Assembly (NCBI GenBank): GCA_030390025.1
Contig: JASTWF010000034.1
Location: forward strand, 62,001-126,000
Length of the DNA: 64,000 nt
Direction of reading: 5' to 3'
Source: Squalus acanthias
Lineage: Eukaryota
This document shows positions 1,283 to 60,734 of the stretch, piece by piece (positions within the stretch are counted from its first letter, which is position 1; every line of letters starts with the position of its first letter). The position numbers and the translations under genes were made by a program. The notes below the pieces were generated by a model. It was not told the origin of the DNA, ran no database searches, and worked only from the letters and a program-made list of their open reading frames with translations.

Positions 1283-1506
1283 TAAATTATTTATTATTTT
1301 GCGGCTTGGTTTGTGTGAAACCTACATCACAAATTTCAATTAGACTCTTTTCCTTGCCCCAGCTCCTGTAAATACTGGCTGGAAAGGGGCCGGACTCTCA
1401 GGAGGCTCCACACCGCTGGCTGATCGTGTGTCAGTGATCTCCATTCAGATTAATGTGCATCTGCTGTGTGTGTGTTTAACAAAGTGCCCGAAGCAGTTCA
1501 TAAGGT

Positions 1507-3628
1507 GGGGAACCAGTGAGTGTAGAACTGAACCCATTCAGATTCAGCACCTTCAGGGGAGGAGAGGGAGGGGAACCAGTGAGTGTAGAACTGAATCCAT
1601 TCAGAGTCAGCACCTTCAGGCGAGGAGAGGGAGGGGAACCAGTGAGTGTAGAACTGAATCCATTCAGAGTCAGCACCTTCAGGCGAGGAGAGGGAGGGGA
1701 ACCAGTGAGTGTAGAACTGAACCCATTCAGATTCAGCACCTTCAGGGGAGGAGAGAGAGGAGAACCAGTGAGTGTAGAACTGAATCCATTCAGAGTCAGC
1801 ACCTTCAGGGGAGAAGAGGGAGGGGAACCAGTGAGTGTAGAACTGAATCCATTCAGAGTCAGCACCTTCAGGCGAGGAGAGGGAGGTGAACCAGTGAGTG
1901 TAGAACTGAATCCATTCAGAGTCAGCACCTTCAGGCGAGGAGAGGGAGGGGAACCAGTGAGTGTAGAACTGAATCCATTCAGAGTCAGCACCTTCAGGGG
2001 AGGAGAGGGAGGGGAACCAGTGAGTGAACTGAACCCAGCCAGAGTCAGCACCTTCAGGGGAGGAGAGAGAGAGGAACCAGTGAGTGTCGAACTGAACCCA
2101 GCCAGAGTCAGCACCTTCAGGGGAGGAGAGAGAGGGGAACCAGTGAGTGAACTGAACCCAGCCAGCGTCAGCACCTTCAGCGGAGGAGAGAGAGGGGAAC
2201 CAGTGAGTGTAGAACTGAACCCAGCCAGAGTCAGCACCTTCAGTGGAGGAGAGAGAGGGGAACCAGTGAGTGTAGAACTGAACCCAGCCAGAGTCAGCAC
2301 CTTCAGGCGAGGAGAGGGAGGGGAACCAGTGAGTGTAGAACTGAACCCATTCAGATTCAGCACCTTCAGGGGAGGAGAGAGAGGAGAACCAGTGAGTGTA
2401 GAACTGAATCCATTCAGAGTCAGCACCTTCAGGGGAGGAGAGGGAGGGGAACCAGTGAGTGTCGAACTGAATCCATTCAGAGTCAGCACCTTCAGGCGAG
2501 GAGAGGGAGGGGAACCAGTGAGTGTAGAACTGAATCCATTCAGAGTCAGCACCTTCAGGCGAGGAGAGGGAGGGGAACCAGTGAGTGTAGAACTGAATCC
2601 ATTCAGAGTCAGCACCTTCAGGGGAGGAGAGGGAGGGGAACCAGTGAGTGAACTGAACCCAGCCAGAGTCAGCACCTTCAGGGGAGGAGAGGGAGGGGAA
2701 CCAGTGAGTGTAGAACTGAACCCATTCAGAGTCAGCACCTTCAGGGGAGGAGAGGGAGAGGAACCAGTGAGTGTAGAACTGAACCCATGCAGAGTCAGCA
2801 CCTTCAGGGGAGGAGAGAGAGGAGAACCAGTGAGTGTAGAACTGAACCCAGCCAGAGTCAGCACCTTCAGGGGAGGAGAGAGAGGGGAACCAGTGAGTGA
2901 ACTGAACCCAGCCAGCGTCAGCACCTTCAGCGGAGGAGAGAGAGGGGAACCAGTGAGTGTAGAACTGAACCCAGCCAGAGTCAGCACCTTCAGCGGAGGA
3001 GAGAGAGGGGAACCAGTGAGTGTAGAACTGAACCCAGCCAGAGTCAGCACCTTCAGCGGAGGAGAGAGAGGGGAACCAGTGAGTGTAGAACTGAACCCAG
3101 CCAGAGTCAGCACCTTCAGGGGAGGAGAGGGAGAGGAACCAGTGAGTGTAGAACTGAACCCAGCCAGAGTCAGCACCTTCAGGGGCGGAGAGGGAGGGGA
3201 TCCAGTGAGTGTAGAACTGAACCCAGCCAGAGTCAGCACCTTCAGGGGAGGAGAGGGAGGGGAACCAGTAAGTGTAGAACTGAACCCAGCCAGAGTCAGC
3301 ACCTTCAGGGAAGGAGAGTGAGGGGAACCAGTGAGTGTAGAACTGAACCCAGCCAGAGTCAGCACCTTCAGGGGAGGAGAGTGAGGGGAAACCAGTGAGT
3401 GTAGAACTGAACCCAGCCAGAGTCAGCACCTTCAGGGGAGGAGAGGGAGGGGAACCAGTGAGTGTAGAACTGAACACAGCCAGAGTCAGCACCTTCAGGG
3501 GAGGAGAGTGAGGGGAACCAGTGAGTGTAGAACTGAACCCAGCCAGAGTCAGCACCTTCAGGGGAGGAGAGGGAGGGGAACCAGTGAGCGTCGAACTGAA
3601 CCCAGCCAGAGTCAGCACCTTCAGGGGA
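1507..3628 (+). repeat. 63-bp minisatellite (some 60-bp units), ~34 copies, in the ZNF cassette intron
   Basis: Unit GGAACCAGTGAGTGTAGAACTGAACCCAGCCAGAGTCAGCACCTTCAGGGGAGGAGAGGGAGG; period seen at 1511 and 1574. Confidence 0.95.
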
Positions 3629-3815: not shown

Positions 3816-4550
3816 AGTATTAGAAGAGGGGGAGGATTTACAGCCGGGAAACTCAAACCAAACATCACTTCAAGATCTGACAGAGGCACTCAATACAGCA
3901 GGACCCGAATATCATCGGCGTTTGAATGTGGAAGGAGAAATGTTTTAACTAGTTACACAACCTGAAAGCACATTGCACCAATCACATTGGGGGAAACAGT
4001 ACGCTTGTTCTGTGTGTGGACGAGGCTTCAACTGATCGTCCAACCTGGAGATTCACAAGGACACCCGCACCACGGAGAAACCGTGGAAATGTGGGGACAG
4101 TGGGAAGGGATTCAATTACCCGTCTGAGCTGGAAATTCATCGACGCAGTCACACCGGGGAGAGGCCGTTCACCTGCTACGTGTGTGAGAAGGGATTCACT
4201 CAGTTATCCACCCTGCAGATACACCAGCGAATTCACACCGGGGAGAGGCCGTTCACCTGCCCTGTGTGTGGGAAGGGATTAACTCAGTCATCTAATCTGC
4301 TGAGACACCAGCAAGGTCACACTGGTAGAGGCCATTCACCTGCTCCATATGTGGGAAGAGATTCTCTCAATTATCTGACCTTCTGTCACACCAGCGAGTT
4401 ATTACAGGGGAGAGGCCGTTCACCTGCTCCGTGTGTGGGAAAGGATTCAGCTGTCCATCCCACCTGCTGACACACCAGCGAATTCACAAGTGACTGCAGG
4501 GGTTGGATTCGGCTGTTATTGCGACTGTTAATCACATCCAGGTCTGAACC
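3816..4550 (+). pseudogene. C2H2 zinc-finger pseudogene (class A cassette, copy 1)
   Basis: Acceptor TATACAG ends 3815; leader deletion near 3945; TGA 4033; [11 protein letters not shown] at 4072; HTGERPF linkers; frameshift near 4326; terminal TGA 4491. Confidence 0.85.
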
Positions 4551-11664: not shown

Positions 11665-11980
11665 TCAGCCAATGAGGGAGCTCCGGGCTGTGCCCCGCCC
11701 ACTAGGTGCCGCAAGCCCCGCCCCTCACACACTCCGATTGTTGGAGTACCCGCCGCCCGCTCGGTCCTCCAGCCCCGCCCCGCTCTTCCTATTGGTCCGG
11801 AGCTCCCGTCAATCACCCGGGCAGTGTGAGCTGAGCATGCGCGGACCTTGGCAGCAGCCGCTGACACATCAGGTGAGAGAGCTCAGGGAGCGGGTTAATA
11901 AACCCCGGGGGGACGCGGGCTGCACACACCCCGAGTGCGGCCCCAGGCCCCATTATTAAAACACTCAACATTATCCGCCT
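11665..11980 (+). promoter_or_regulatory. Second copy of the promoter module (CCAAT, GC boxes, first exon/donor)
   Basis: Near-identical to 410-678; CCAAT at ~11669. Confidence 0.7.
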
Positions 11981-12051
11981 CCCCACAACTACCCGCCAGT
12001 TTAAGACACAAACTCCGGGACAACCAGGAAGTGCTGGGAAATCCCCAGCGA

Positions 12052-12534
12052 GTCAGGGAGCGTCTGTAAATGGAGGAGAAATGGAGACTGGTCAGGGAGC
12101 GTCTGTAAATGGAGGAGAAATGGAGACTGGTCAGGGAGCGTCTGTAAATGGAGGAGAAATGGAGGCTGGTCAGGGAGCGTCTGTAAATGGAGGAGAAATG
12201 GTGTCTGGTCAGGGAGCGTCTGTAAATGGAGGAGAAATGGAGACTGGTCAGGGAGCGTCTGTAAATGGAGGAGAAATGGAGACTGGTCAGGGAGCGTCTG
12301 TAAATGAATGAAGTAGAAATGGAGACTGGTCAGGGAGCGTCTGTAAATAAGGGATAAATGGTGACTCGTCAGGGAGCGTCTGTAAATGGAGGAGAAATGG
12401 TGACTGGTCAGGGAGCATCTGTAAATGGAGGAGAAATGGTGACTGGTCAGGGAGCGTCTGTAAATGGAGCAGAAATGGTGACAGGTCAGGGAGCGTCTGT
12501 AAATGAAGGAGAAATGGTGACTGGTCAGGGAGCA
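12052..12534 (+). repeat. 39-bp minisatellite, same unit as 750-1282, ~12 copies
   Basis: Unit GGTCAGGGAGCGTCTGTAAATGGAGGAGAAATGG(A/T)GACT. Confidence 0.95.
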
Positions 12535-14030
12535 ATAACATCATAAGTATTAAAATAGAAAGGGATTGTCATCTTGGATAAAATAGGAGATCTGAAATTA
12601 GCTGGCGCTCCAGGTCCAGAAGATATCCACCCAAGGGTGTTTAAAGAGCTGGGACGGTGCTCTGTGAGCCCCTTGCCCATATCTTCACCAGTTCAATAGA
12701 GTCAGGGATTGATCCCTGAGATTGGAAGGTAGTTCACGTCATTTCCATTTTCAAAACAGGGAGAAGTCAGAGCCAGAGAACTACAGGCCCATCAGTGTGG
12801 TCTCGATCAGAAGGAAGATGCTTGAAGGGATCCTGAGAGATGCTGTTTATGGTCACTGGGGCAGGGAAGGATCCATTAGAAATACTCACACGGCTTCTGG
12901 AAAAGAAGGTCGCGTCCAACAAACTTGCCTTAGTCGGACGTGGGACTTGCCTGTTTACTCTGCTTGATGGATCAATATAAGATAGGGTAGACGATAGAGA
13001 ATCTGCTCATCTTAATGTTGTTGATGCTCAACTCTTGGACCTATTAATTAAATAATAAGACAAGGCGTTAGCTGGAATCTAACACCCCACATTCTCTCTG
13101 CTCCTCTACTCCTCTTAAAGTTTTACTATTTAGATTTTTTAATTGAATTGGGATGTGGACATCGCGGGCAAGGCCAGCATTTATTGCCCATCCCCAGTTG
13201 CCATTGAGAAGTTGGTCTTGAGCTGCCTTCATGAATCGCCACAGTGCTGTTATACAGGGAGTTCCAGGATTTGGAACCAGCGACGATGAAGGAACAGCGA
13301 TATATTTACAAGGCAGGATGGTGTGTGTAACTTGCAGGGGAACTTGCAGGTGGTGGTGTTCCCATGTGCCTGCTGTCCTTGTCCTTCTAGGTGGAAGAGG
13401 TCGCGGTTTTGGGAGGTGCTGTCGAAGAAGCCTTGGTGAGTTGCTGCAGTGCATCTTGTAGATGGTACACCCTGCAGCCACGGTACGCCGGTGGTGGAGG
13501 GAGTGAATGTTTAAGGTGGTGGATGGGGAGCCGATCAAGCGGGCTGCTTTGTCCTGAATGGTGTCGAGCCTCTTGAGTGTTGTTGGAGCCGCACTCATCC
13601 AGGCAAGTGGAGAGTACTTCCATCAGACTCCTGACTTATGCCTTGTAGATGTAGAAAGGCTTTGGGGAGTCAGGAGGTGAGACACTCACCGCAGAATATC
13701 CAGCCTCTGACCTGCTCTTGTAGCCACAGTATTTATGTGGCTGGTCCAGTTAAGTTTCTGGTCAATGGTAACCCCCAGGATGTTGATGGTGGGGGATTCG
13801 GTGATGGTAATGCCGTTGAATGTCAAGGGTCTGTGGTTAGACTCTCTCTTGTTGGAGATAGTCAATGCCTGGCACTTGTGTGGCACGAATGTTACTTGCC
13901 ACTTATCAGCTCAAGCCTGAATGTCATTCATATCTTGCTGCATGCGGGCACAGACTACTTCATTAACTGAGGAGTTGTGAATGGAATTGATCACTGTGCA
14001 ATCATCAGTGAACATCCCCACTTCTGACCT

Positions 14031-19980: not shown

Positions 19981-20640
<660 letters not shown>

Positions 20641-23039: not shown

Positions 23040-23470
23040 TTGTTCCTGTCTGGTGACAGTGGGACTACTCAGTGTCGCCCCTACCGGTGGTCAAAAAATG
23101 ATTACAGGAGCCAAGTGCGCAGGCGCAGGACGGGGCAGTGCTCTGAGCATGCGCAGTGCGAGTAGCAGAGCCGGGAGTGAAACGCAAGACACGCTCTCAG
23201 GAGGTGGTAGGAGTTTGTGGGCTCGGGGAGGAATTGGACCCGCGGCTGGGCTGGGAAGATTCATAAACACCCGGTGTCGGCCTCAGGCCCCAAACAAGAG
23301 CCCACAGGCCCCGTGTTTGCCCCGCGGTGACAGGCCCGGCCGCCCGGGTCAGCGGGGTCACTGGCCGCCATCTTGGACAGGCCGGGATCACGGCGCATGC
23401 GCGGCCATCTTGGCCAGGAACAGTGAGTGGGCGGGGCTTCAGGGTCCCAGTGACCAGGAGAGACAATCAT
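23040..23470 (+). promoter_or_regulatory. CpG-island promoter and non-coding first exon of ZNF copy 3
   Basis: NRF1-like GCGCAGGCGCA and GCGCATGCGC; YY1 GCCGCCATCTTG ~23364; donor-like CA|GTGAGT ~23423. Confidence 0.65.
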
Positions 23471-26437
23471 TGACTCATTGATTTTATTCTCACTCTGCAC
23501 ACAGCGGGTGTGGAACTGAACCCAACCAGAGTAGAGGGAGGGAGAAAACTGGGAGTGGAGGAAAGAAATGTTGGAGATAGTGCGATGGGTTTGGATTTCA
23601 GCACAGGGAGGAGGGAGAGTTTGTGGGACGGGGATTTACAGCTTTGGGGGAATAAGAGTGGGAAGGAGTTGTTGCTTTTTGCCTACACTACTTGTAGTGC
23701 TTTGTGTTACAGGTAGATATTTAATTAATCTAGATCAAGTAAGTAGTCAGGAAACGACACTGTAAACTAAGTTACCTAATTACAAATTAAATTAAATTAA
23801 ATAAATCAAGGTCATATAGGGATGGCAGTGCAGGTGGTGTGCCGCAACTGCAGCATGTGGGAGTTTGTGGAGAGCATTGTGATCCCGGACAACCACGTTT
23901 GCAGTAAGTGCCTGCATCTTGAGGAACTTCAGCTCAGAGTTTTTGAGCTGGAGTCTGAGGTGCAGACATTGCGGGGCATCATGGATGGGGAGAGTTACCT
24001 GGACACTTTGATCCAGGAGGCAGTTACACCCCTTAGGTTAGGTAGTGGTACAGGTCTGGTTAGTGGTCAGGGACAGGAGGGTGTGACTGCAACTCAGGCA
24101 GGTAAGGGGACCCCAGATGCAGTGCTGGAGGAGCCTCAGCCTTTACCTGCCTGGTGCCAGGGTTAAAGACATCTCCTCACGGCTGGAGAAGAAGTGGGAG
24201 GGGGAGGATCCAGTTGTCGTGGTCCACGTAGAAACCAACGACATAGGTAGAACTAGGAATAAGGTTCTGCTGAGGGAGTTTGAGGAGCTAGGATCCAAAT
24301 TAAAAAGCAGAACCTCAAATGTAATAATCTCTGGATTTTTACCTGAGCCACGTGCAAATTAGCGTAGGGACAAACAGATTAGAGGTTTAAATGCGTGGCT
24401 CAAAGACTGGTGTGGAAGGAAGGGGTTTCAGTTCATGGGGCACTGGCACCAGTACTGGGGAAAGAAGGAGCTGTTCCGTTGGGACGGGCTCCACTTAAAC
24501 CGGGCTGGGACCAGTGTCCTGGCGAACCAAATAACTAAGACAATAGACAGGGCTTTAATCTAATGAAGGGGGTGGTGGGAGGATTCAGGAAAGAGTAAAT
24601 TTAAAAGCAATGAGAGAAATGTAATGGCTCTAGAGCAGAGTAGAGTTTTGGGTAAAAATAAGCAGAGTGGGTCAGGAAGGGACAGAGAGCGTAACAAAGG
24701 TAATAAGACATCAGTGACTAAGGTGACATCAGGGAAAAATAGAAATAAGTCAAAGCTAAAGGCACTATATCTGAATGCGCGAAGCATTTACAACAAAATA
24801 GATGAATTAATAGCGCAGATAGAAATTAACAGGTTTGATCTAATAGCCATAACGGCGATGTGGTTGCAAAGTGGCCAAGGTTGGGAACTAAATATTCCAG
24901 GATACATAACTTTTAGAAGGGATAGGCAAAATGGAAAAGGAGGAGGGGTAGCCCTGATAATAAAGGATGGGCTAAAGACAGGAGAGAGAAAGGATCTGAG
25001 CTCTGAAAATCAGGAAGTAGAATCAGTTTGGGTGGCGCTAAGAAACAGCAAGGGGCAGAAAATATTGGTGGGAGTTGTTGATAGGCCCTCAAACAGTAGT
25101 TGTAATGTAGGGCAGAGTATAAATCAGGAAATTAGAGGCGCATGTAACAAGGGTAATACAGTGATCATGGGGGACTTTAATCTACATATAGACTGGGCAA
25201 ACCAAATTTGCAGTAATAGTGTGGAGGACGAATTCATGGAATGTATGCAAGATAGTTTTCTAGATCAATATGTTGAGGAACCAACGAGGGAACAGGCTAT
25301 TTTAGATCTAGTATTGTGCAATGAGAAAGGGTTAATTAATAACCTTGCAGTAAAGGGGCCTTTAGGGAAGAGTGACCATAATATGATAGAATTTTATATT
25401 GAGTTTGAAAGTGACTTAGTTAAATCCGAAACTAGGGTCTTAAATCTAAACAAAGCAAACTATGTAGGTATGAGGGGCGAGATGGCTAAGGTAGATTGGG
25501 GAACTACATTAAAAGGTATGACAGTGGATGAGCAATGGCTAGCGTTAAAGAATTAATACATAAGTTACAACAAATATACATTCCTTTAAGGCACAAAAAC
25601 CCCACAGGAAAGTGGTCCAACCATGGCTAACAATAGCAGTTAAAGATAGTATTAGATCAAAGGAAGAGGCTTATAATGCTGCCAAAAAGAGTTGTAAGCC
25701 TGAGGATTGGGAGGATTCTAGAATTCAGCAAAGGAGGACCAAGAAATTGATAAAGGAAGGGAAAATAGAATATGAGTGTAAACGAGCGAGAGACATAAAA
25801 ACAGACTGTAAAAGCTTCTATAGGTATGTAAAAAGAAAAAGATTAGCAAAAATGTGGGTCCCTTACAGGCTGAGACAGGAGAAATTATAATGGGGAATAA
25901 GGACATGGCAGAGAAATTAAACAAATACTTTGTGTCTGTCTTCACAGAAGAAGACGCAAAAAACTTCCCGGAAATAATGAAGTTCCAAGGGTCTAACGAG
26001 AATGAGGAACTGAAAGAAATTAGTATTAGTAAAAAAGTAGTACTGGAGAAATTAATGGGACTGAAAGCCAATAAATCCCCTGGACCTGATGGCCTACATC
26101 CTAGGGTTTTGAAAGAGGTGGCTATAGAGATAGTGGATGCATTGGTTGTCATTTTCCAAAATTCCATAGATTCTAGAACGGTTCCCACAGATTGGAAGGT
26201 AGCAAATGTAACCCCACTATTTAAGAAAGGAGGGAGAGAGAAACCGGGGAACTACAGACCAGTTAGCCTGACATCAGTAGTAGGGAAAATGCTAGAATCT
26301 ATTATTAAGAACATGGTAACAGGGCACTTAGAAAATAATAATAGGATTGGGCAGAGTCAACATGGATTTATGAAAGGGAAATTGTGTTTGACAAATCTGT
26401 TAGAATTTTTTGAGGTTGTAACTAACAGAATAGATAA

Positions 26438-28847: not shown

Positions 28848-29690
28848 ACGGAGAAACCCTGGAAATGTGGGGACTGTGGGAAGGGATTCAGCGCCCCGTC
28901 CCAGCTGGAAATTCATTGGCGCAGTCACACCGGGGAGAGGCCGTTCACCTGCTCCGTGTGTGGGAAGGGATTCACTTGTTCTTCCCACCTCACTGAACAC
29001 CAGCGAGTTCACACTGGAGAGAGACCATTCATCTGCTCTGTGTGTGGGAAAGGATTCATTAAATCATCTCACCATCTGAGACACCAATCTGTTCACACAG
29101 AGGAGAGGCCGTTCACCTGCTCCTTGTGCGGGAAGGGATTCTCAAATGCATCCACCCTTCTATCTCACCAGCGTTTTCACACTGAGGAGAGGCCATTCAC
29201 CTGCTCCGTGTGTGGGAAGGGATTCACTCTGTTATGCCACGTCACTGCACACCAACTTGTTCACACCAATAGGAGACCGTTTAAATGCTCTGACTGTGAG
29301 AAGCACTATAAAAGCAGAAAAGATCTGATGAAACACCAACGCACTCACACTGGGGAGAGGCCGTTCACCTGCTCCAAGTGTGGGAAGGGATTCACTCGTT
29401 CATCCCATGTGCTGAGACACCAGCGAGTTCACACTGGGGAGAGGCCGTTCACCTGCTCTGTGTGTGGGAAGGGATTCACTCGGTCATCCAGCCTGCTGAC
29501 ACACCAGCGAGTTCACACTGGAGAGAGACCGTTCACCTGCTCCGTGTGTGGGAAGGGTTTCACTTGGTCATCCACCCTGCTGAATCACCAGCGAGTTCAC
29601 ACTGGGGAGAGGCCGTTCACCTGCTCCGTGTGTGGGAAGGGATTCACTCGGTCATCCAACCTGTTGAATCACCAGCGAGTTCACGACTGA
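28848..29690 (+). CDS. C2H2 zinc-finger protein, ~10 fingers (class A, copy 3); start uncertain (ACG 28848, first in-frame ATG 29328)
   Basis: Open frame [14 protein letters not shown]...HQRVHD* with HTGERPF linkers; exon acceptor ends 28487; in-frame TGA at 28650 and 28809 upstream; AATAAA 29811. Confidence 0.7.
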
Positions 29691-29934
29691 CTGCAGGGGT
29701 TGGATTCTGCTGTTGTTGCCGCTTATAATCACATCCAGGACTGAACGATGTTCATTCTGACAATTGGGGTTTGTTTCCTCTATAACTGGGCTGGAGTTTA
29801 ATATCTGACAAATAAATCAACTTTGTTTCGAACACACAGTGTGTCGAGTCCTTGATTTCTCCCATAATAAGAGGAGACTAATTGTTGTCCTGTTACCGAC
29901 TCTTCCTTTTTTGGGTCGTTTCTCCTTTGTTAAA

Positions 29935-36769: not shown

Positions 36770-37099
36770 CAGCCAATGAGGGAGCTCCGGGCTGAGCCCC
36801 GCCCACTGGGTGCCGCAAGCCCCGCCCCTCACACACTCCGATTGGTTGGAGGACCCGCTGCCCGCTCGGTCCTCCAGTCCCGCCCCGCTCTTCCTATTGG
36901 TCCGAGCTCCCGTCAATCACCCGGGCAGTGTGAGCTGAGCATGCGCGGACCTTGGCAGCAGCCGCTGACACATCAGGTGAGAGCGCTCAGGGAGCGGGTT
37001 AATAAACCCCGGGGGGATGCGGGCTGCACACACCCCGAGTGCGGCCCCAGGCCCCATTATTAAAACACTCCACATTATCCGCCTCACAAACACCCGGGG
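36770..37099 (+). promoter_or_regulatory. Third copy of the promoter module
   Basis: Near-identical to 11665-11980. Confidence 0.7.
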
Positions 37100-42591: not shown

Positions 42592-43851
42592 TCAATTCCC
42601 CGGAACTTTTATAGCACTTCCCACAGTCCAAGCATTTAAAAGGTCATCAGTGTGTGTGTGCTGATGATTCAGCAGGTGGGATGACTGAGTGAATCCCTTC
42701 CCACACTCAGAGCAGCTGAACGGCCTCTCCCCAGTGTGAACTCGCTGGTGTCTCAGCAGATGCGTTTTGGTTTTAAATCTCTTCTCACAGTCAGAACATT
42801 TAAAAGGTCTCTTATCAGTGTGAACAAGTTGGTGTTCAAGCAGGTGGGATGAACGACTGAATCCGATCCCACACTCAGAGCAGGTGAACGGCCTCTCCCC
42901 AGTGTGAGTGCGCTGGTGTGTCAGAAGGTGGGATGACTGAGTGAATTTCTTCTCACACACGGAGCAGGTGAATGGCCTCTCCCCAGTGTGAGTACGCTGG
43001 TGTTCAGTGAGGTCAGATGATCGCCTGAACCCAGTCCCACAGTGAGAGCACCTGAACGGTCTCTCGTCAGTGTGAACTCGCCGGTGTTTCAGCAGGGTGG
43101 ATGACTGAGTGAATCCCTTCCCACACACGGGGCAGGTGAATGGCCTCTCCCCAGTGTGAGTGCACTGGTGTGTCAGAAGGTTGGGTGACTGAGTGAATCG
43201 CTTCCTACACACTGAACAGGTGAACGGCCTCTCCCCAGTGTGAGTGCGCTGGTGGACAGTGAGGTCAGATGATCGCCTCAACCCAGTCCCGCAGTGAGAG
43301 CACCTGAACGGTCTCTCGTCAGTGTGAATAAGTTGATGGCATGTCAGTTCCCTGGAACTTTTAAAGCAGTTCCCACAGTTCAAGCAGTTAAAAGGTCTCT
43401 CATCAGTATGAACTCGCTGGTGATTCAGTAGGTAGGATGACTCAGTGAATCCCTTCCCACATTCAGAGCAGGTGAACGGCCTCTCCCCAGTGTGAACATG
43501 CTGGTGTCTCAGTAGGTGAGATGACTGAGAGAATCCCTTCCCACACACAGGGCAGGTGAACAGCCTCTCCCCGGTGTGAAGTCGCTGGTGAGTCAGCAGG
43601 TTGGATGACTGAGTGAATCCCTTCCCACACATGGAGCAGGTGAACGGCCTCTCCCCAGTGTGAGTGTGCTGGTGTGTCAGCAGGTCGGATGAACGAGTGA
43701 ATCCCTTCCCACACTCAGAGCAGGTGAACGGCCTCTCCCCGGTGTGACTGCGCTTGTGTCTCGATAGGCCAGATGATTGGCTGAATCCTCGTCCACACAC
43801 AGAACATGTGTACGGTTTCTCCCCGCTGTGAACAGTGCTTTTTGCTTCCAT
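42592..43851 (-). CDS. C2H2 zinc-finger protein, 14 in-frame fingers (class B); 3 more fingers lie behind frameshifts, ancestral stop at 42397
   Basis: AACATGG start at 43851, [16 protein letters not shown]...; acceptor at 43958; 4-bp deletion near 42645 and +1 insertion near 42430; reverse AATAAA near 42246. Confidence 0.8.
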
Positions 43852-44249
43852 GTTCAGAGGCCGGTGATATTCAGATCCGATGAGTCGAGTGACTGTCAGA
43901 TCTTGACGTGATGTTTGGTTTGAGCTTACCGACTGCAAATCCTCCCCTTCTAATACCCTGTAAAATTAATTTAAAACAGGGAGCGTGAGAGAGAACCCAC
44001 AAGAAAACAAAGGCAGGTTGTGAAATTGAGCTCAGTGAATCTGGTCATTTGTGGGGCCGGCACTAGAAAAAAGTCACCATGAAAGCTGCCGGATTGTCAT
44101 AAAAACCCAACTGGTTCACTGATGTCCTTCAGAGCAGGGAACCCGCCACCTGGTCTGGGCCTACACAAGACTCTGGCCTCTATGGGAGGAGAGAGAGAGA
44201 GAGAGAGAGGTGGGAGTGGGAGGGGAGGAGAGGGGGCGAAGGAAAGGAA

Positions 44250-51425: not shown

Positions 51426-51636
51426 CAGCAGCTGGAGCCTGAAAATCAGCTTCACTGCCCCTAGGCTGGGAAAGGGGAAAATTAAACAACATTTTGTCTC
51501 TGATCCTTTTCTAAACTCATTTTACAGGGTTATAGAAGTGGAGCAGTTACAGGCGGGAAGCTCAGACCAAACATCACGTCAAGATCTGACAGAGTCGCTC
51601 GATTCATCCGGACCTCAATATCATCGGTCTTTGCAC

Positions 51637-53778
51637 ATGGAAGGAGAAAGCAGCGATCGCAGCGATGACAAACCGCACACGTGTTCGGTGTGTGGACGCG
51701 GATTCAGCCGATCGCCTGACCTGGTGAGACACGTGCACCGTCACACCGGGGAGAAACCGGGTAAAGGTGGGGACGGTGGGAAGGGATTCAGTTCCCCGTC
51801 TGCAATAGAAGTTCAACGGCGCAGTCGCACCAGGGACAGTCCGTTCACCTGCTCCGTGTGTGGAAAGGGATTTGTTTGTTCATCCCACCTGGAAACACAC
51901 CAGCTTGTTCACACTGACGAGAGGCCATTTACATGCTCTGACTGTGGGAAGAGCTTTAAAAGCCCCCAGGATCTGAAGCGACACCAGCGAGTTCACACTG
52001 ATGAGCGACCGTTTATATGTTCTGACTGTGGGAAGAGCTTTAAAAGCCCCCAGGAGCTGAAGGGACACCAGCTTGTTCACACTGATGAGCGACCATTTCA
52101 GTGTTCTGACTGTGGGAAGAGCTTTAAAAGCCCCCAGGAGCTGAAGGGACACCAGCGAGTTCACACTGACGAGAGACCATTTCAGTGTTCTGACTGTTGG
52201 AAGAGCTTTAAAAGCCCCCAGGAGCTGAAGCGACACTAGTTTGTTCACACCGATGAGAGACCATTTCAGTGTTCTGACTGTGGGAAGAGCTTTAAAAGCT
52301 CCGGGGATCTGAAGGGACACCAGCGAGTTCACACTAATGAGAGGCCGTTTACATGTTCTGACTGTGGGAAGAGCTTTAAAAGTTCCGGGGATCTGAAGGG
52401 ACACCAGCTTGTTCACACTAATGAGAGGCCATTTACGTGTCCTGACTGTGGGAAGAGCTTTAAATGCTCCGGGGATCTGAAGGAACACCAGCTTGTTCAC
52501 ACTAATGAGAGGCCGTTTACATGTCCTGACTGTGGGAAGAGCTTTAAGAGTTCTGGGGATCTGAAGGGACACCAGCGAGTTCACACTGCAGAGAGGCCAT
52601 TTACATGTTCTGACTGTGGGAAGAGCTTTAAACGCCCCAGGGATCTGAAGGGACACCAGCTTGTTCACACTGCAGAGAGGCCATTCACCTGCTCCGTGTG
52701 TGGGAAGGGATTCTTGCAGTCCTGCATACTGCTGACACACCAGCTTGTTCACACTGACGAGAGACCATTTAACTGTTCTGACTGTGGGAAGAGCTTTAAA
52801 AGCCCCGGGGAGCTGAAGGTACACCAGCGAGTTCACACTGACGAGAGACCCTTTAAATGTTCTGAGTGTGGGAAGAGCTTTAAAAGCCCCTGGGATCTCA
52901 AGCAACACCAGCGAGTTCACACTGGAGAGAGGCCGTTCACCTGCTCCGTGTGTGGGAAGGGATTCGCTCGGTCAACCAACCTGCAGAGACACCAGCGCCT
53001 CCACACTGGGGAGAGGATATTCATCTGCTCTGAATGTGGGAAGGGATTCACTGAATCATCCACCCTGCAGACACACCAGCTTGTTCACACTGACGAGAGA
53101 CCCTTTAAATGTTCTGACTGTGGGAAGAGCTTTAAAAGCTCCCGGGATCTGAAGGGACACCAACACCTACACACTGGGGAGTGGCCGTTCACCTGCTCCG
53201 TGTGTGGGAAGGGATTCGCTCGGTCCTCCAACCTGCTGACACACCAGCTTGTTCACACTGGGGAGGCGCCGTTCACCTGCTCCGTGTGTGGGAAGGGATT
53301 CACTCAGTCATCCCACCTGCTGAGACACGAGCGAGCTCACATTGGGGAGAGACCCTTTAAATGTTCTGACTGTGGGAAGAGCTTTAAAAGCCCCGGGGAT
53401 CTGAAGGGACACCAGCGAGCTCACACTGACGAGAGACCCTTTAAATGTTCTGAGTGTGGGAAGAGTTTTAAAAGTCCCTGGGATCTCAAGCAACACCAGC
53501 GAGTTCACACTGGAGAGAGACCGTTCACCTGCTTCGTGTGTGGGAAGGGATTCGCTCGGTCAACCAACCTGCAGAAACACCAGCTCCTCCACACTGGGGA
53601 GAGGCCGTTCACCTGCTCCGTGTGTGGGAAGGGATTCACTGAGTCATCCACCCTCCTGTCACACCAGCTTGTTCACACTGACGAGAGACCCTTTAAATGT
53701 TCTGACTGTGGGAAGAGCTTTAAAAGTTCTAAGAACCTTAAGGGACACCAGCGTCTTCACACTGATCATAGAATCTAA
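51637..53778 (+). CDS. C2H2 zinc-finger gene of ~25 finger units with one in-frame TAG (52237-52239); truncated gene or recent pseudogene (class B)
   Basis: Acceptor ends 51527; CACATGG start, [16 protein letters not shown]; the same frame continues past the TAG into ORF 52696-53778; final stop lies in an antisense CR1 tail. Confidence 0.75.
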
Positions 53779-57427: not shown

Positions 57428-57840
57428 GTTCCACAGAAGCACGAGGTTTATCTGCTTTTATTCATGAATTTAAAAGTCTGTATTAAAATCTGAGCCAGTG
57501 TGTTGTGAGACAAAGAGCCTTGTGTCCAATAAGGGGAATAAAGGCCCACAGCCTCCCCTGGCCCCGGGCCCTGAACAAGGGACTGGAGAAACTCGCTGCC
57601 CCGCGGATCAGACAATCAGCCGGCGCTAGTCCCGCCCCTCGGGCTCCCCGATTGGTTGGAGGACCCGCCGCCGGCTCGCTCCTCCAGCCCCGCCCCGCTC
57701 GCTCCCTATTGGTCGGAAGCTCCCGTCAATCAGGCCGTGTGCCCTGGTCACGTGTCCCTCACCGACTTTACAAAGAAAGTGCCACCCGCAGCAGGGCGCA
57801 TGCGCGGCCATCTTTGTGCAGGAACTGAGTGGGCGGAAGA
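57428..57840 (+). promoter_or_regulatory. CpG promoter of ZNF copy 6
   Basis: Duplicate of 49267-49595; GCGCATGCGCGGCCATCTT (NRF1 plus YY1) ~57796. Confidence 0.62.
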
Positions 57841-58489
57841 GAAAATCATTGACTCATTGATTTTATTCTCACTCTACACAACTGGTGTAGAACTGAACCC
57901 AACCAGAGTAGAGGGAGGGAGAAAACTGGGAGTAGAGGAAAGAAATGTTGGAGATGGTACGATGGGTTTGGATTTCAGCACAGGGAGGAGGGAGAGTGTG
58001 TGGGACGGGGATTTACAGCTTTGGGGGAACAAGAGAGGAAAGAATATTCCATAGAAACTAGAATTGTCTGTTCTGAATTTTTATCCTGTGCTTACAGTGA
58101 TGACTTTTGCAAACTCCTTTTACAGGGTATTAGAAGAGGAAGATTTACAGACGGGAAACTCAAACCAAACATCACAACAAGATCTGACAGAGTCACTCCA
58201 TTCATCAGGACCTGAATATCATCGGCCTTTGAATGTGGAAGGAGAAATTTTTCTCTGTTCTGTCTGTGGGAAAAGATTTCAAACATCAGTGTGACTGGAA
58301 AAGCACCGAGACACACACACCCGAGTGAGAGTGTTCCAGTGCACTGACTGTGGAAAGAGCTTTAACCAGTTACACAGCCTGAAAAAACATCGCACCATTC
58401 ACAGTGGGGAGAAACCGTACACGTGTTCTGTGTGTGGACGAGGCTTCAACTGATCGTCCAACCTGGAGAGACACAAGGACACCCGCACC

Positions 58490-59548
58490 ACGGAGAAACC
58501 GTGGAAATGTGGGGACTGTGGGAAGGGATTCAGTTGCCCATCACACCTGGAAACTCCTCGACGCAGTCACACCGGGGAGAGGCCATTCACCTGCTCCGTG
58601 TGTGGAAAGGGATTCTCTCACTCATCCTACCTGATCAGACACCAGCGAGTTCACACTGGGGAGAGGCCGTTCTCCTGTTCCGTGTGTGGGAAGGGATTCA
58701 CTCATTCAACCACACTGCTGCAACACCAGCGAGTTCACACTGGGGAGAGACCGTTCACCTGCTCCGTGTGTGGGAAGAGATTCAACCATTCAACCACACT
58801 GCTGCAACACCAGCGAGTTCACACTGGGGAGAGACCGTTCACCTGCTCCGTGTGTGGGAAGAGATTCACTCAGTCATCCAACCTGCTGAAACACCAACTT
58901 GTTCACTCTGATAAGAGACCTTTTAAATGTTCTAAGTGTGAGCTGAGCTTTAAAAGTGCAAGTGGTCTGCTGAGACACCAACGCACTCACACCGGGGAGA
59001 GGCCATTCACCTGCTCCATGTGTGGGACGGGATTCACTAATTCATCCAACCTGCTGACACACCAGCGAGTTCACACTGACGAGAGACCTTTTAAATGCTC
59101 GGACTGCGGGAAGTGCTATAAAAGTTCTGGGGAACTGACGTGCCATCAACGTGTTCACACTGACCAGAGACCGTTCAGGTGCTCTCACTGTGGGACTGGG
59201 TTCAGGCAATCATCTGAACTCACTGTCCACCAGCGCACTCACACTGGGGAGAGGCCGTACACCTGCTCCGTGTGTGGGAAGGGATTCACTCGCTCATCCC
59301 ACCTCACTGGTCATCAACTTGTTCACACTGATGAGAGACCTTTTAAATGTTCTGACTGTGAGAAGAGCTTTAAAAACAAAAGGAAACTGATACAACACCA
59401 ACGCACTCACACTGGGGATTGGCCATTCATCTGCTCCATGTGTGGGAAGGGATTCACTCATTCATCCGCCCTGCTGACACACCAGCGAGTTCACAAGTCA
59501 CTGCAGCGGTTAGATTCTGCTGTTATTGCTGCTGTTAATCACATCTAG
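58490..59548 (+). CDS. C2H2 zinc-finger protein, ~12 finger units (class A, copy 6); start uncertain (ACG 58490, first in-frame ATG 59018)
   Basis: Acceptor ends 58125; in-frame TGA 58292 and 58451; open frame TEKPWKCGD...[18 protein letters not shown]. Confidence 0.72.
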
Positions 59549-60734
59549 GACTGAACCAGTGTGGCCTCCTTATTATTCCTACCAAAATGCACCACATATC
59601 TTAAAATTAATTTTCTAATTACCCTCCCATTCTGGAAGCTTATTAATGTCTTCTTGCATTTTTTTTTAATATTCGCTCATCGGATGTGGGCGTTGCTGGC
59701 AAGGCCAGCATTTATTGCCCATCCCTAATTGCCCTTGAGAAGGTGGTGGTGAGCTGCCTTCTTGAACCGCTGCAGTCCGTGTGGTGAAGGTGCTCCCACA
59801 CTGCTGTTAGGGAGGGAGTTTGACCATGATTTTGTCACAGTCTTCCTCAGTATTAACTCTACCTCCCAATTTGGTGTCATCGACAAATTTTGAAATTGGA
59901 CTTCCAATTCCTGACTCCAAATCGTTTATGTAAATGGTGAACAACAGTGGTCTTCTACCCCAGTTAGACTCTTATTTTTAAAATAGTATGTGGCCTTCTT
60001 ATTCTTCCTACCAAAACACACCACCTCACACTGATCTATATTGAAATTCATTTGCCAATTACACTCCCATTTTGCAAGTTTGTAAATGTGTTTTTTTTGT
60101 TAAAGTTTGCATTTTGTTGCAGTCTTCCTCAGTATTAACTCTACCTCCCAATTTGTTGTCATCGACAAAGTTTGAAATTGTACTTCTGATTCACGAGTCC
60201 AAATCGTTTCTGTAAATGGTGAACAACAGTGGTCCCAGCACCGATCCCCGTGGAACACCACTTCCCACCTATTGCCAGTCTGAGTAGCTACTCTTAACCC
60301 CTACGCTCTGTTTCCTGTTTTGTCACCAGCTTGTTATCCATAACAGTTTGTACGGTCTACAAGATGACCCAGGTCAGGCCGTGTGGAGTGAAGGGCCAGG
60401 CAGCAGAATGGATGGAAAGATGGCTACAAAACAGAAATCAGAGGGTTGGAGTTAAGGGAAGTTTATAGCAATCTTTGTGTGTGTGTCACAAATAAATGTT
60501 GTTTTATTTTGAAGAGAAATACAAAAGCTCTACTAGTCATGTAAAACTACCAGTTATTTTAATCAGGGCTGCAGCTGCTGAAAGGTTGACTGTACTGAGG
60601 TTTGTGGCCAGAGCTGGCAGACGTGTTGTTCTGAAGTCTGATGTCTCACACCTGAAGAGTCTGTTTATGTCGTGTTGTAATGACCTTTTTCTGTTGCCTG
60701 GTGTCAGAAATAGAAATCAAAGGGAGATGTAACG

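Follow-up and report, generated by a model that had tools for sequence, protein, structure and literature searches.

A degenerate finger linker with an ACG codon as candidate start region of zinc-finger arrays in a shark C2H2 gene family

Zinc-finger genes of the window

The analysed stretch of the Squalus acanthias genome (64,000 nucleotides of contig JASTWF010000034.1, hereafter the window) harbours a cluster of C2H2 zinc-finger genes amid LINE fragments. All follow one plan: a CpG-rich promoter, a short exon 1 and one large exon opening with a common acidic linker. The paralogues carry tandem C2H2 arrays with a conserved framework and variable finger tips, as is characteristic of lineage-specific poly-C2H2 clusters. 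Three classes are represented. In classes B and C an ATG is found at the end of the acidic linker, at about 43851 in class B. In class A this position is occupied by GTG, followed by three leader fingers (L1-L3) with two in-frame stop codons (TGA1 and TGA2) and then by an ACG codon. The features of the focal class A copy, of its three relatives and of the class B paralogue are as follows.

57790..57826, + strand: short exon 1, at the end of the CpG-island promoter
58126..58489, + strand: 5' part of exon 2, with the acidic linker and leader fingers L1-L3
58292..58294, + strand: TGA1, in frame, in leader finger L1
58451..58453, + strand: TGA2, in frame, at helix position -1 of the dead leader finger L3
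58463..58465, + strand: in-frame CUG (aacCTGg; A at -3, G at +4), 27 nt 5' of ACG, in all four class A copies
58482..58513, + strand: predicted 12-bp hairpin with ACG in its 5' arm, beginning 16 nt past CUG
58484..58500, + strand: degenerate finger linker with ACG (58490-58492), homologous to the canonical His-Thr-Gly-Glu-Lys-Pro linker
58490..59548, + strand: C2H2 array ORF of 352 codons from ACG, with all four ligands in 11 of its 12 fingers; no in-frame ATG before 59018
58507..58509, + strand: out-of-frame AUG 17 nt past ACG, in all four copies
28848..29690, + strand: the other intact class A array, open for 280 codons from ACG, all 10 fingers being C2H2; omega 0.18
20343..20525, + strand: broken class A copy with ACG retained; 26-nt deletion inside finger 1
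4072..4470, + strand: broken class A copy with ACG retained; 110-nt leader deletion, frame lost after about four fingers
42592..43956, - strand: class B paralogue, for comparison; 14 C2H2 fingers and no leader fingers; omega 0.07

An earlier note on this DNA, made from the letters alone, had described an ACG at the start of an intact array in all four class A copies. The motif CGC ACC ACG GAG AAA CC is indeed present at 4072, 20343, 28848 and 58490, and in each copy an in-frame TGA lies 39 nt 5' of ACG, as had been claimed. Intactness holds for two copies, those at 28848 and 58490, whose ORFs of 280 and 352 codons are open from ACG. The copy at 20343 is frameshifted at its 26-nt deletion and stops after 60 codons. 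That at 4072 has a Cys to Ser change in finger 1 and stops after 132 codons. Neither of these two ORFs contains an in-frame ATG. In the open arrays the first in-frame ATGs are found where the note had placed them, at 29328 (160 codons past ACG) and 59018 (176 codons past ACG). Starts at these codons would retain only 4 of 10 and 5 of 12 complete fingers, and no in-frame ATG serves the first six to seven fingers of either array. Since two and four out-of-frame AUGs precede them in the two open copies, we rejected these downstream ATGs as the normal start.

The ACG stands where a canonical linker has its Gly codon; the class C copy carries GGG there (51748-51750). That class C gene (51529-53778) is ATG-started and interrupted by an internal TGA near 52237. 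Its 24 recognised fingers show little diversity, and in the second of them Gly has taken the place of both Cys. As for class A, no coding N-terminal effector exon was found, exon 1 being about 35 nt long and TGA1 and TGA2 lying between it and the array. No domain common to the region upstream of the linker was apparent among the 39 proteins matched by a linker profile search.

Within the leader, the zinc ligands of L1 and L2 are complete, and L3 has lost its last His. An out-of-frame upstream AUG at 58233 opens 31 codons. In the other class A copies an in-frame upstream AUG at the place of 58247 opens 15 codons and terminates at TGA1; the focal copy has ATT instead. The leader of the 28848 copy carries two 2-nt deletions. 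The exon-1 donor reads GTGAGT in the paralogous promoter near 23420 and has lost 2 nt in the focal copy. Altogether, four private lesions mark the focal copy: the donor deletion (57820-57830), the loss of the upstream AUG (58247-58249), a His to Pro change in finger 1 (58556-58558) and a change of the shared terminal TGA to TCA at about 59497-59499, through which the frame reads on to a TAG. As the donor, the in-frame upstream AUG, the finger-1 His and the shared stop have all been affected, the focal copy may be decaying itself. The stops common to class A copies are all TGA. TGA1 and TGA2 both occupy DNA-contact positions, at which an Arg codon CGA would have TGA as its decay product, and a CTG directly follows both TGA1 (58292-58297) and the shared terminal stop (29688-29693).

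Two properties of the ACG had been regarded as suggestive, namely its strong Kozak context and its presence in every class A copy. The context is real (A at -3, G at +4), yet it carries no evidential weight: in the four arrays of the window, the corresponding codon is flanked by a purine at -3 and by G at +4 in 54 of 60 linkers, a consequence of ACC-xxx-GAG encoding the Thr-x-Glu of the linker. We therefore rejected it as evidence of initiation, as it was inherited with the linker and not found to be a selected context. The presence of ACG in all four copies was set aside likewise, as descent predicts the same. The leaders of the three best copies diverge by only 1.2-2.1%, and an average leader CpG is kept in all four copies with P 0.58-0.71, so that retention of the codon is uninformative.

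Transcripts, alleles and relatives of the ACG site

Four public runs were mapped on 57700-58600, and the results given here cover 40 of the 64 difference rows and 15 of the 21 joints. Run X3 is DNA, and X6 and X17 were guessed to be RNA; X6 shares the organism label of X3, and X17 comes from another organism. A further run, X22, was uninformative, with two mapped reads. Both X6 and X17 behave as spliced RNA: their depth jumps 27-fold and 57-fold, respectively, across the acceptor at 58126, where the depth of X3 is flat, and joints between exon 1 and exon 2 (57809 to 58153 and 57824 to 58165) appear in these two runs only. At the level of the family, the ACG codon thus lies in a spliced transcript. 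Class B reads add to the variation seen in finger 1.

In the rows covered, the codon at 58490 is either ACG or ATG. T at 58491, which gives ATG, accounts for 223,577 of 644,313 in DNA run X3 (35%, 29 contigs), 4,890 of 35,282 in X6 (14%, 12 contigs) and 442 of 10,529 in X17 (4%, 3 contigs); these are summed contig depths, which are no measure of copy number and may overstate whichever allele is commoner. ACG is the majority form in both DNA and RNA, and ATG is the minority. Among the same 40 rows, the ATG is the largest CpG change between 58255 and 58530, and no ACA (the second possible outcome of deamination at this CpG), changed TGA1 or TGA2, or changed CTG was seen; with at most three, one and two further G>A rows in the three runs, ACA is bounded rather than excluded. 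The drop of ATG from DNA to RNA may reflect low expression of a subfamily rather than an effect of the codon, since two other differences fall likewise, 58224 G>A (37% in DNA versus 3-5% in RNA) and 58254 T>C (26% versus 3-6%). Such a subfamily may carry T at 58491, A at 58224 and C at 58254 together. One difference behaves in the opposite way: 58176 A>G rises from 5% in DNA to 29-38% in RNA. Because classes B and C carry G at this position, it probably marks a higher share of their transcripts and not editing. A-to-I repair of the leader TGAs was rejected, as the three runs have 12, 13 and 13 A>G differences, of which the additional one is 58176.

Relatives bearing species names were found exclusively in sharks. 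Among all proteins fetched, the site is read in frame in three: as Thr in the RefSeq models XP_067869957.1 (Heterodontus francisci) and XP_067837673.1 (Heptranchias perlo), and as an internal Met in the H. francisci model XP_067870206.1. In protein models, Thr may also stand for ACA. Other models stop just 5' of TGA1 (Pristiophorus japonicus, H. francisci and one ENA record) or end just 5' of TGA2 (Carcharodon carcharias). The models with Thr or Met in the linker, taken together with those ended by the stops, indicate that the cassette spans galeomorph and squalomorph sharks. Its retention alone is no proof of selection, because intron sequence is recognisable in these shark records too and cartilaginous fishes evolve slowly (PMC8455134).

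The earlier note had suggested that many annotated shark zinc-finger proteins begin at this codon. Such a shark protein was not present among 164 records, which come from searches poorly suited to find one. A protein search centred on the ACG yielded one candidate and a linker-only search none. When the read-through leader was searched as protein, the best 120 of 1,016 matches were dominated by generic arrays, with two matches from cartilaginous fishes and none above 53% identity. Exact look-ups of the two proteins starting at the downstream ATGs gave no match, pattern scans of metagenome and viral contigs likewise gave none, and the linker profile run on 64 stretches confirmed no locus. In the literature, subscription papers and supplements being outside the scope, no description of this shark family or of its start codon was found.

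Array constraint and the two candidate codons

Production of full arrays from these copies would require a start somewhere between TGA2 and the helix of finger 1. The arrays behind the ACG were examined for signs of use as protein. Constraint was estimated from ten framework codons per finger against the family consensus. Nonsynonymous and synonymous framework changes number 6 and 22 in the focal copy (omega 0.10) and 6 and 12 in the 28848 copy, compared with 5 and 25 in the ATG-started class B array. As the reference is the family consensus, these values include old change; moreover, the finger types are common to class B, so the arrays may have been selected elsewhere and then copied in.

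Divergence of the two intact copies is distributed unevenly. No nucleotide of 72 differs between their finger tips in L1-L3, as opposed to 30 of 72 in F1-F3, although positional orthology is uncertain for F2 and F3; in finger 1 alone, whose homology is certain, 7 of 24 differ. Frameshifts show a similar contrast, with three in 1,086 nt of leaders and none in 1,896 nt of the two arrays. In a simulation at neutral rates taken from the leaders, the probability of remaining open is 0.04 and 0.07 for the two arrays, and it falls to 0.002 and 0.016 once the decayed copy at 4072 contributes to the rates; these figures depend on three to six indels, and substitutions alone give 0.24-0.53. From all this, the arrays behind the ACG look selected as protein. 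The constraint may begin behind the ACG and ahead of the first AUG, and it would read alike whether it arose here or in ATG-started relatives, and whether ACG or CUG is the start.

A second codon has to be considered here, which the earlier note had missed. The in-frame CUG at 58463, judged by its sequence context and position, is an equally good candidate start, either as a rival of the ACG or in addition to it. ACG and CUG are both established start codons, CUG being generally the more efficient, and weak starts are aided by a good context and by a hairpin 14-18 nt downstream (PMC5666671). The predicted hairpin has an energy of -19.2 kcal/mol in the copies at 58490 and 4072 and about -13.5 kcal/mol in the intact 28848 copy and that at 20343. 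For the copies at 58490, 4072, 28848 and 20343, its z values are -3.7 and -3.9 for the two strong copies, where none of 200 shuffles matched, and -1.2 and -1.5 for the others; the folded segment was picked after the hairpin had appeared in longer folds. Folds of 141 nt or longer around the ACG and the leader were no better than shuffles (z -1.4 to +0.6). Between the two codons, ACG is slightly favoured: ATG is its natural alternative allele, and ACA, a silent change if translation began at CUG, is scarce.

Explanations and known systems

Taken together, the best reading of class A, which we judge about evenly balanced between true and false, is that translation starts weakly at a near-cognate codon (ACG, CUG or both) which follows a leader of dead fingers. 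For its parts, translation of the array from ACG is held only tentatively, and translation from CUG, alone or together with ACG, appears a distinctly fainter prospect. The anatomy, the allele shares, the splicing and transcription of the family and the selection signatures in the arrays were observed directly; ribosome initiation in this region, the codon used and the ancestral state of ACG are inferred. What survives of the non-AUG initiation or re-initiation originally put forward is supported, on indirect grounds, by the selected arrays, the divergence that sets in past the ACG, the want of a usable ATG and the ATG as alternative allele, and no longer by the Kozak argument. Against this reading, two of the four copies keep the ACG although broken, and the focal copy carries its four private lesions.

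According to weak near-cognate initiation, class A genes would be two-exon transcribed members of a large shark C2H2 family which have lost the ancestral ATG that class B still uses. Their first three fingers would have become a non-coding 5' leader with short upstream ORFs, and the finger array would be translated at a low level from a near-cognate codon just past TGA2. Ribosomes might arrive there by leaky scanning or by re-initiation past the 15- and 31-codon upstream ORFs, and those that miss both CUG and ACG would be lost to the +17 AUG, which is out of frame. As for the strong context, it would be a legacy of the Thr-x-Glu linker and would not have evolved for initiation. Copies with ATG would represent a minority allele that arose, most simply, by CpG deamination and that makes the same protein at a higher rate. 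More speculatively, and with rather low confidence, this could be extended to the whole shark family: the linker-born near-cognate codon would be the default and only start, throttling all copies, with germline CpG deamination lifting single copies to the full strength of ATG and translation-coupled decay of finger mRNA countering it, so that the start codon would act as a mutational dial of expression.

The most serious alternative, a real possibility which nevertheless falls short of an even one, is that the ACG copies are transcribed passengers. A promoter-leader cassette with ACG would have been amplified and homogenised through duplication and gene conversion, and the arrays copied or converted from working ATG copies and class B genes, which would then be the sole sources of protein; GC-biased conversion would favour C over T. 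This accords well with two copies being broken and a third bearing several lesions, with the ancestral context, with the subfamily pattern at 58224 and 58254 and with the fact that survival of an ORF under substitutions only is not rare. Furthermore, the 98-99% identity of the leaders breaks inside finger 1, which is common to class B, as at a recombination boundary. It is harder to reconcile with ACG as the majority in DNA and 86-96% in the RNA of two organisms, with Thr in both galeomorph and squalomorph models, and with frameshifts being confined to leaders in the comparison given above. A dead cassette would also require constant refreshing.

CpG deamination had been proposed in the earlier note as a switch that turns silent copies on. 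As the origin of the ATG copies it is plausible; no sign was found that ACG copies are silent and ATG copies on. The corresponding explanation, according to which ACG copies form a silent or nearly silent reservoir from which ACG to ATG changes recruit single copies, is unlikely in our opinion. It would account for the ATG reaching about 35% of DNA depth as the largest CpG change of 58255-58530 in the rows covered, and for the coexistence of Thr and Met models in H. francisci on equal-sized contigs. However, a silent reservoir should lose its ORFs and framework residues, and both are kept. ATG is also under-represented in RNA, although translation-coupled decay could cause this (PMC11620358).

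Still less credible, indeed very improbable, is a reading in which the ACG is an ordinary Thr codon and translation starts at the in-frame upstream AUG or in exon 1, with both TGAs read through or recoded. The complete zinc ligands of L1 and L2 and the CTG after TGA1 would fit it, as would the Trp at TGA1 in one ENA cluster and the Arg at TGA2 in one H. francisci model, which lacks the ACG codon. Nevertheless, two events would be needed, the focal copy has no upstream AUG, the intact 28848 copy is frameshifted in the linker, L3 has lost its last His and the leader tips are undiversified. Models of three named sharks end at the position of TGA1 or TGA2. Rfam detected no significant element in 57500-60500 (two chance-level matches), and neither a recoding signal nor protein-level selection 5' of the stops was seen. 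We consider equally far-fetched that an alternative splice or an internal transcription start supplies an in-frame AUG 3' of TGA2: other upstream exons do exist (loose end at 58123 in X17), yet none of the 15 joints covered out of 21 falls between TGA2 and finger 1, and RNA depth spans the entire leader. Finally, C-to-U editing of ACG to AUG, the RNA switch for which a comparison of RNA with DNA had been recommended, would take a single change and some T does occur in RNA, but T at 58491 is 14% in RNA run X6 against 35% in DNA run X3, which carry one organism label, and 4% in RNA of the other organism (runs from different individuals), so that editing is ruled out as an on-switch.

If initiated at a near-cognate codon, class A genes would work like known ACG- or CUG-started vertebrate genes. 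Of 42 candidates for conserved vertebrate non-AUG starts in Ivanov et al. 2011, seven are ACG and 15 CUG, with WDR26 (ACG/CUG) and the C1QL and YPEL paralogue clusters as examples (PMC3105428). Class A shares with them a near-cognate codon in good context, its evolutionary inference and its occurrence in paralogues. It differs in that those starts produce N-terminal extensions in one to four genes per family with a working AUG downstream, whereas here the candidate would be the sole start of the full array, in a high-copy family in which ACG and ATG vary. Kearse and Wilusz 2017 describe cases in which a weak codon is the sole start or is aided by a hairpin: eIF4G2/DAP5 (GUG), yeast ALA1 (ACG) and PTEN-beta (AUU, with a hairpin 18 nt downstream; PMC5666671). 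As there, a weak codon would be the main start, and the hairpin 16 nt past CUG fits the range of 14-18 nt. Those cases are single genes and experimentally shown, while class A is known from sequence and its hairpin is weak in two of four copies and contains the ACG instead of following it.

As gene families, the tetrapod KRAB-ZNFs and the cyprinid FiNZ-ZNFs are lineage-specific poly-C2H2 expansions (Wells et al. 2023, PMC10547256), in whose main text the words "shark" and "cartilaginous" are absent. Class A resembles them in its clustered two-exon genes, the array in the last exon, variable tips on a conserved framework and many broken copies, and is unlike them in having a dead-finger leader and a non-AUG codon in place of the effector exon. 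Another link is offered by zebrafish, in which mRNAs with tandem C2H2 fingers undergo Znf598-dependent no-go decay and are stabilised when initiation is blocked (Ishibashi et al. 2024, PMC11620358). By analogy, such translation-coupled decay is another possible cause of the ATG deficit in RNA, and it could make a weak start beneficial. This decay is known from zebrafish, however, and a poorly expressed subfamily accounts equally well for the ATG skew in the shark.

Should ACG or CUG be used, the majority form of a very large shark transcription-factor family is mis-modelled by annotation; the RefSeq models concerned extend 5' through unrelated sequence or stop at the leader TGAs. This would also make a non-AUG codon the main start across a high-copy family, and copies with ACG, ATG and any ACA on one cassette would constitute a natural allelic series in which selection on the strength of a start codon could be measured. 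Were the copies passengers instead, the family would contain an ordinary amplified set of transcribed pseudogenes.

Several further promoter and repeat structures were observed in the window. Copies of the promoter are found at 11712-11981 and 36816-37099, and the promoter region at 234-678 matches itself in inverted orientation (83% over 456 nt), which suggests head-to-head duplicated promoters. A promoter with an intact exon-1 donor (23260-23665) lies 5 kb 5' of the 28848 copy, with LINE fragments between them. Its exon 1 contains an ATG that splicing would bring into frame with the linker (28488), where the reading frame would end as an upstream ORF. The intron of the 4072 copy is filled by a 63-bp minisatellite (1476-3620), the unit of which matches 57885-57909; each unit contains a donor-like word GTGAGT and an acceptor-like word of pyrimidines and CAG. 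A short tandem repeat, possibly an amplified small exon, follows the promoter copies at 700-1290 and 12000-12540, and the peptide it encodes is also present just 5' of the linker in the H. francisci model P0125.
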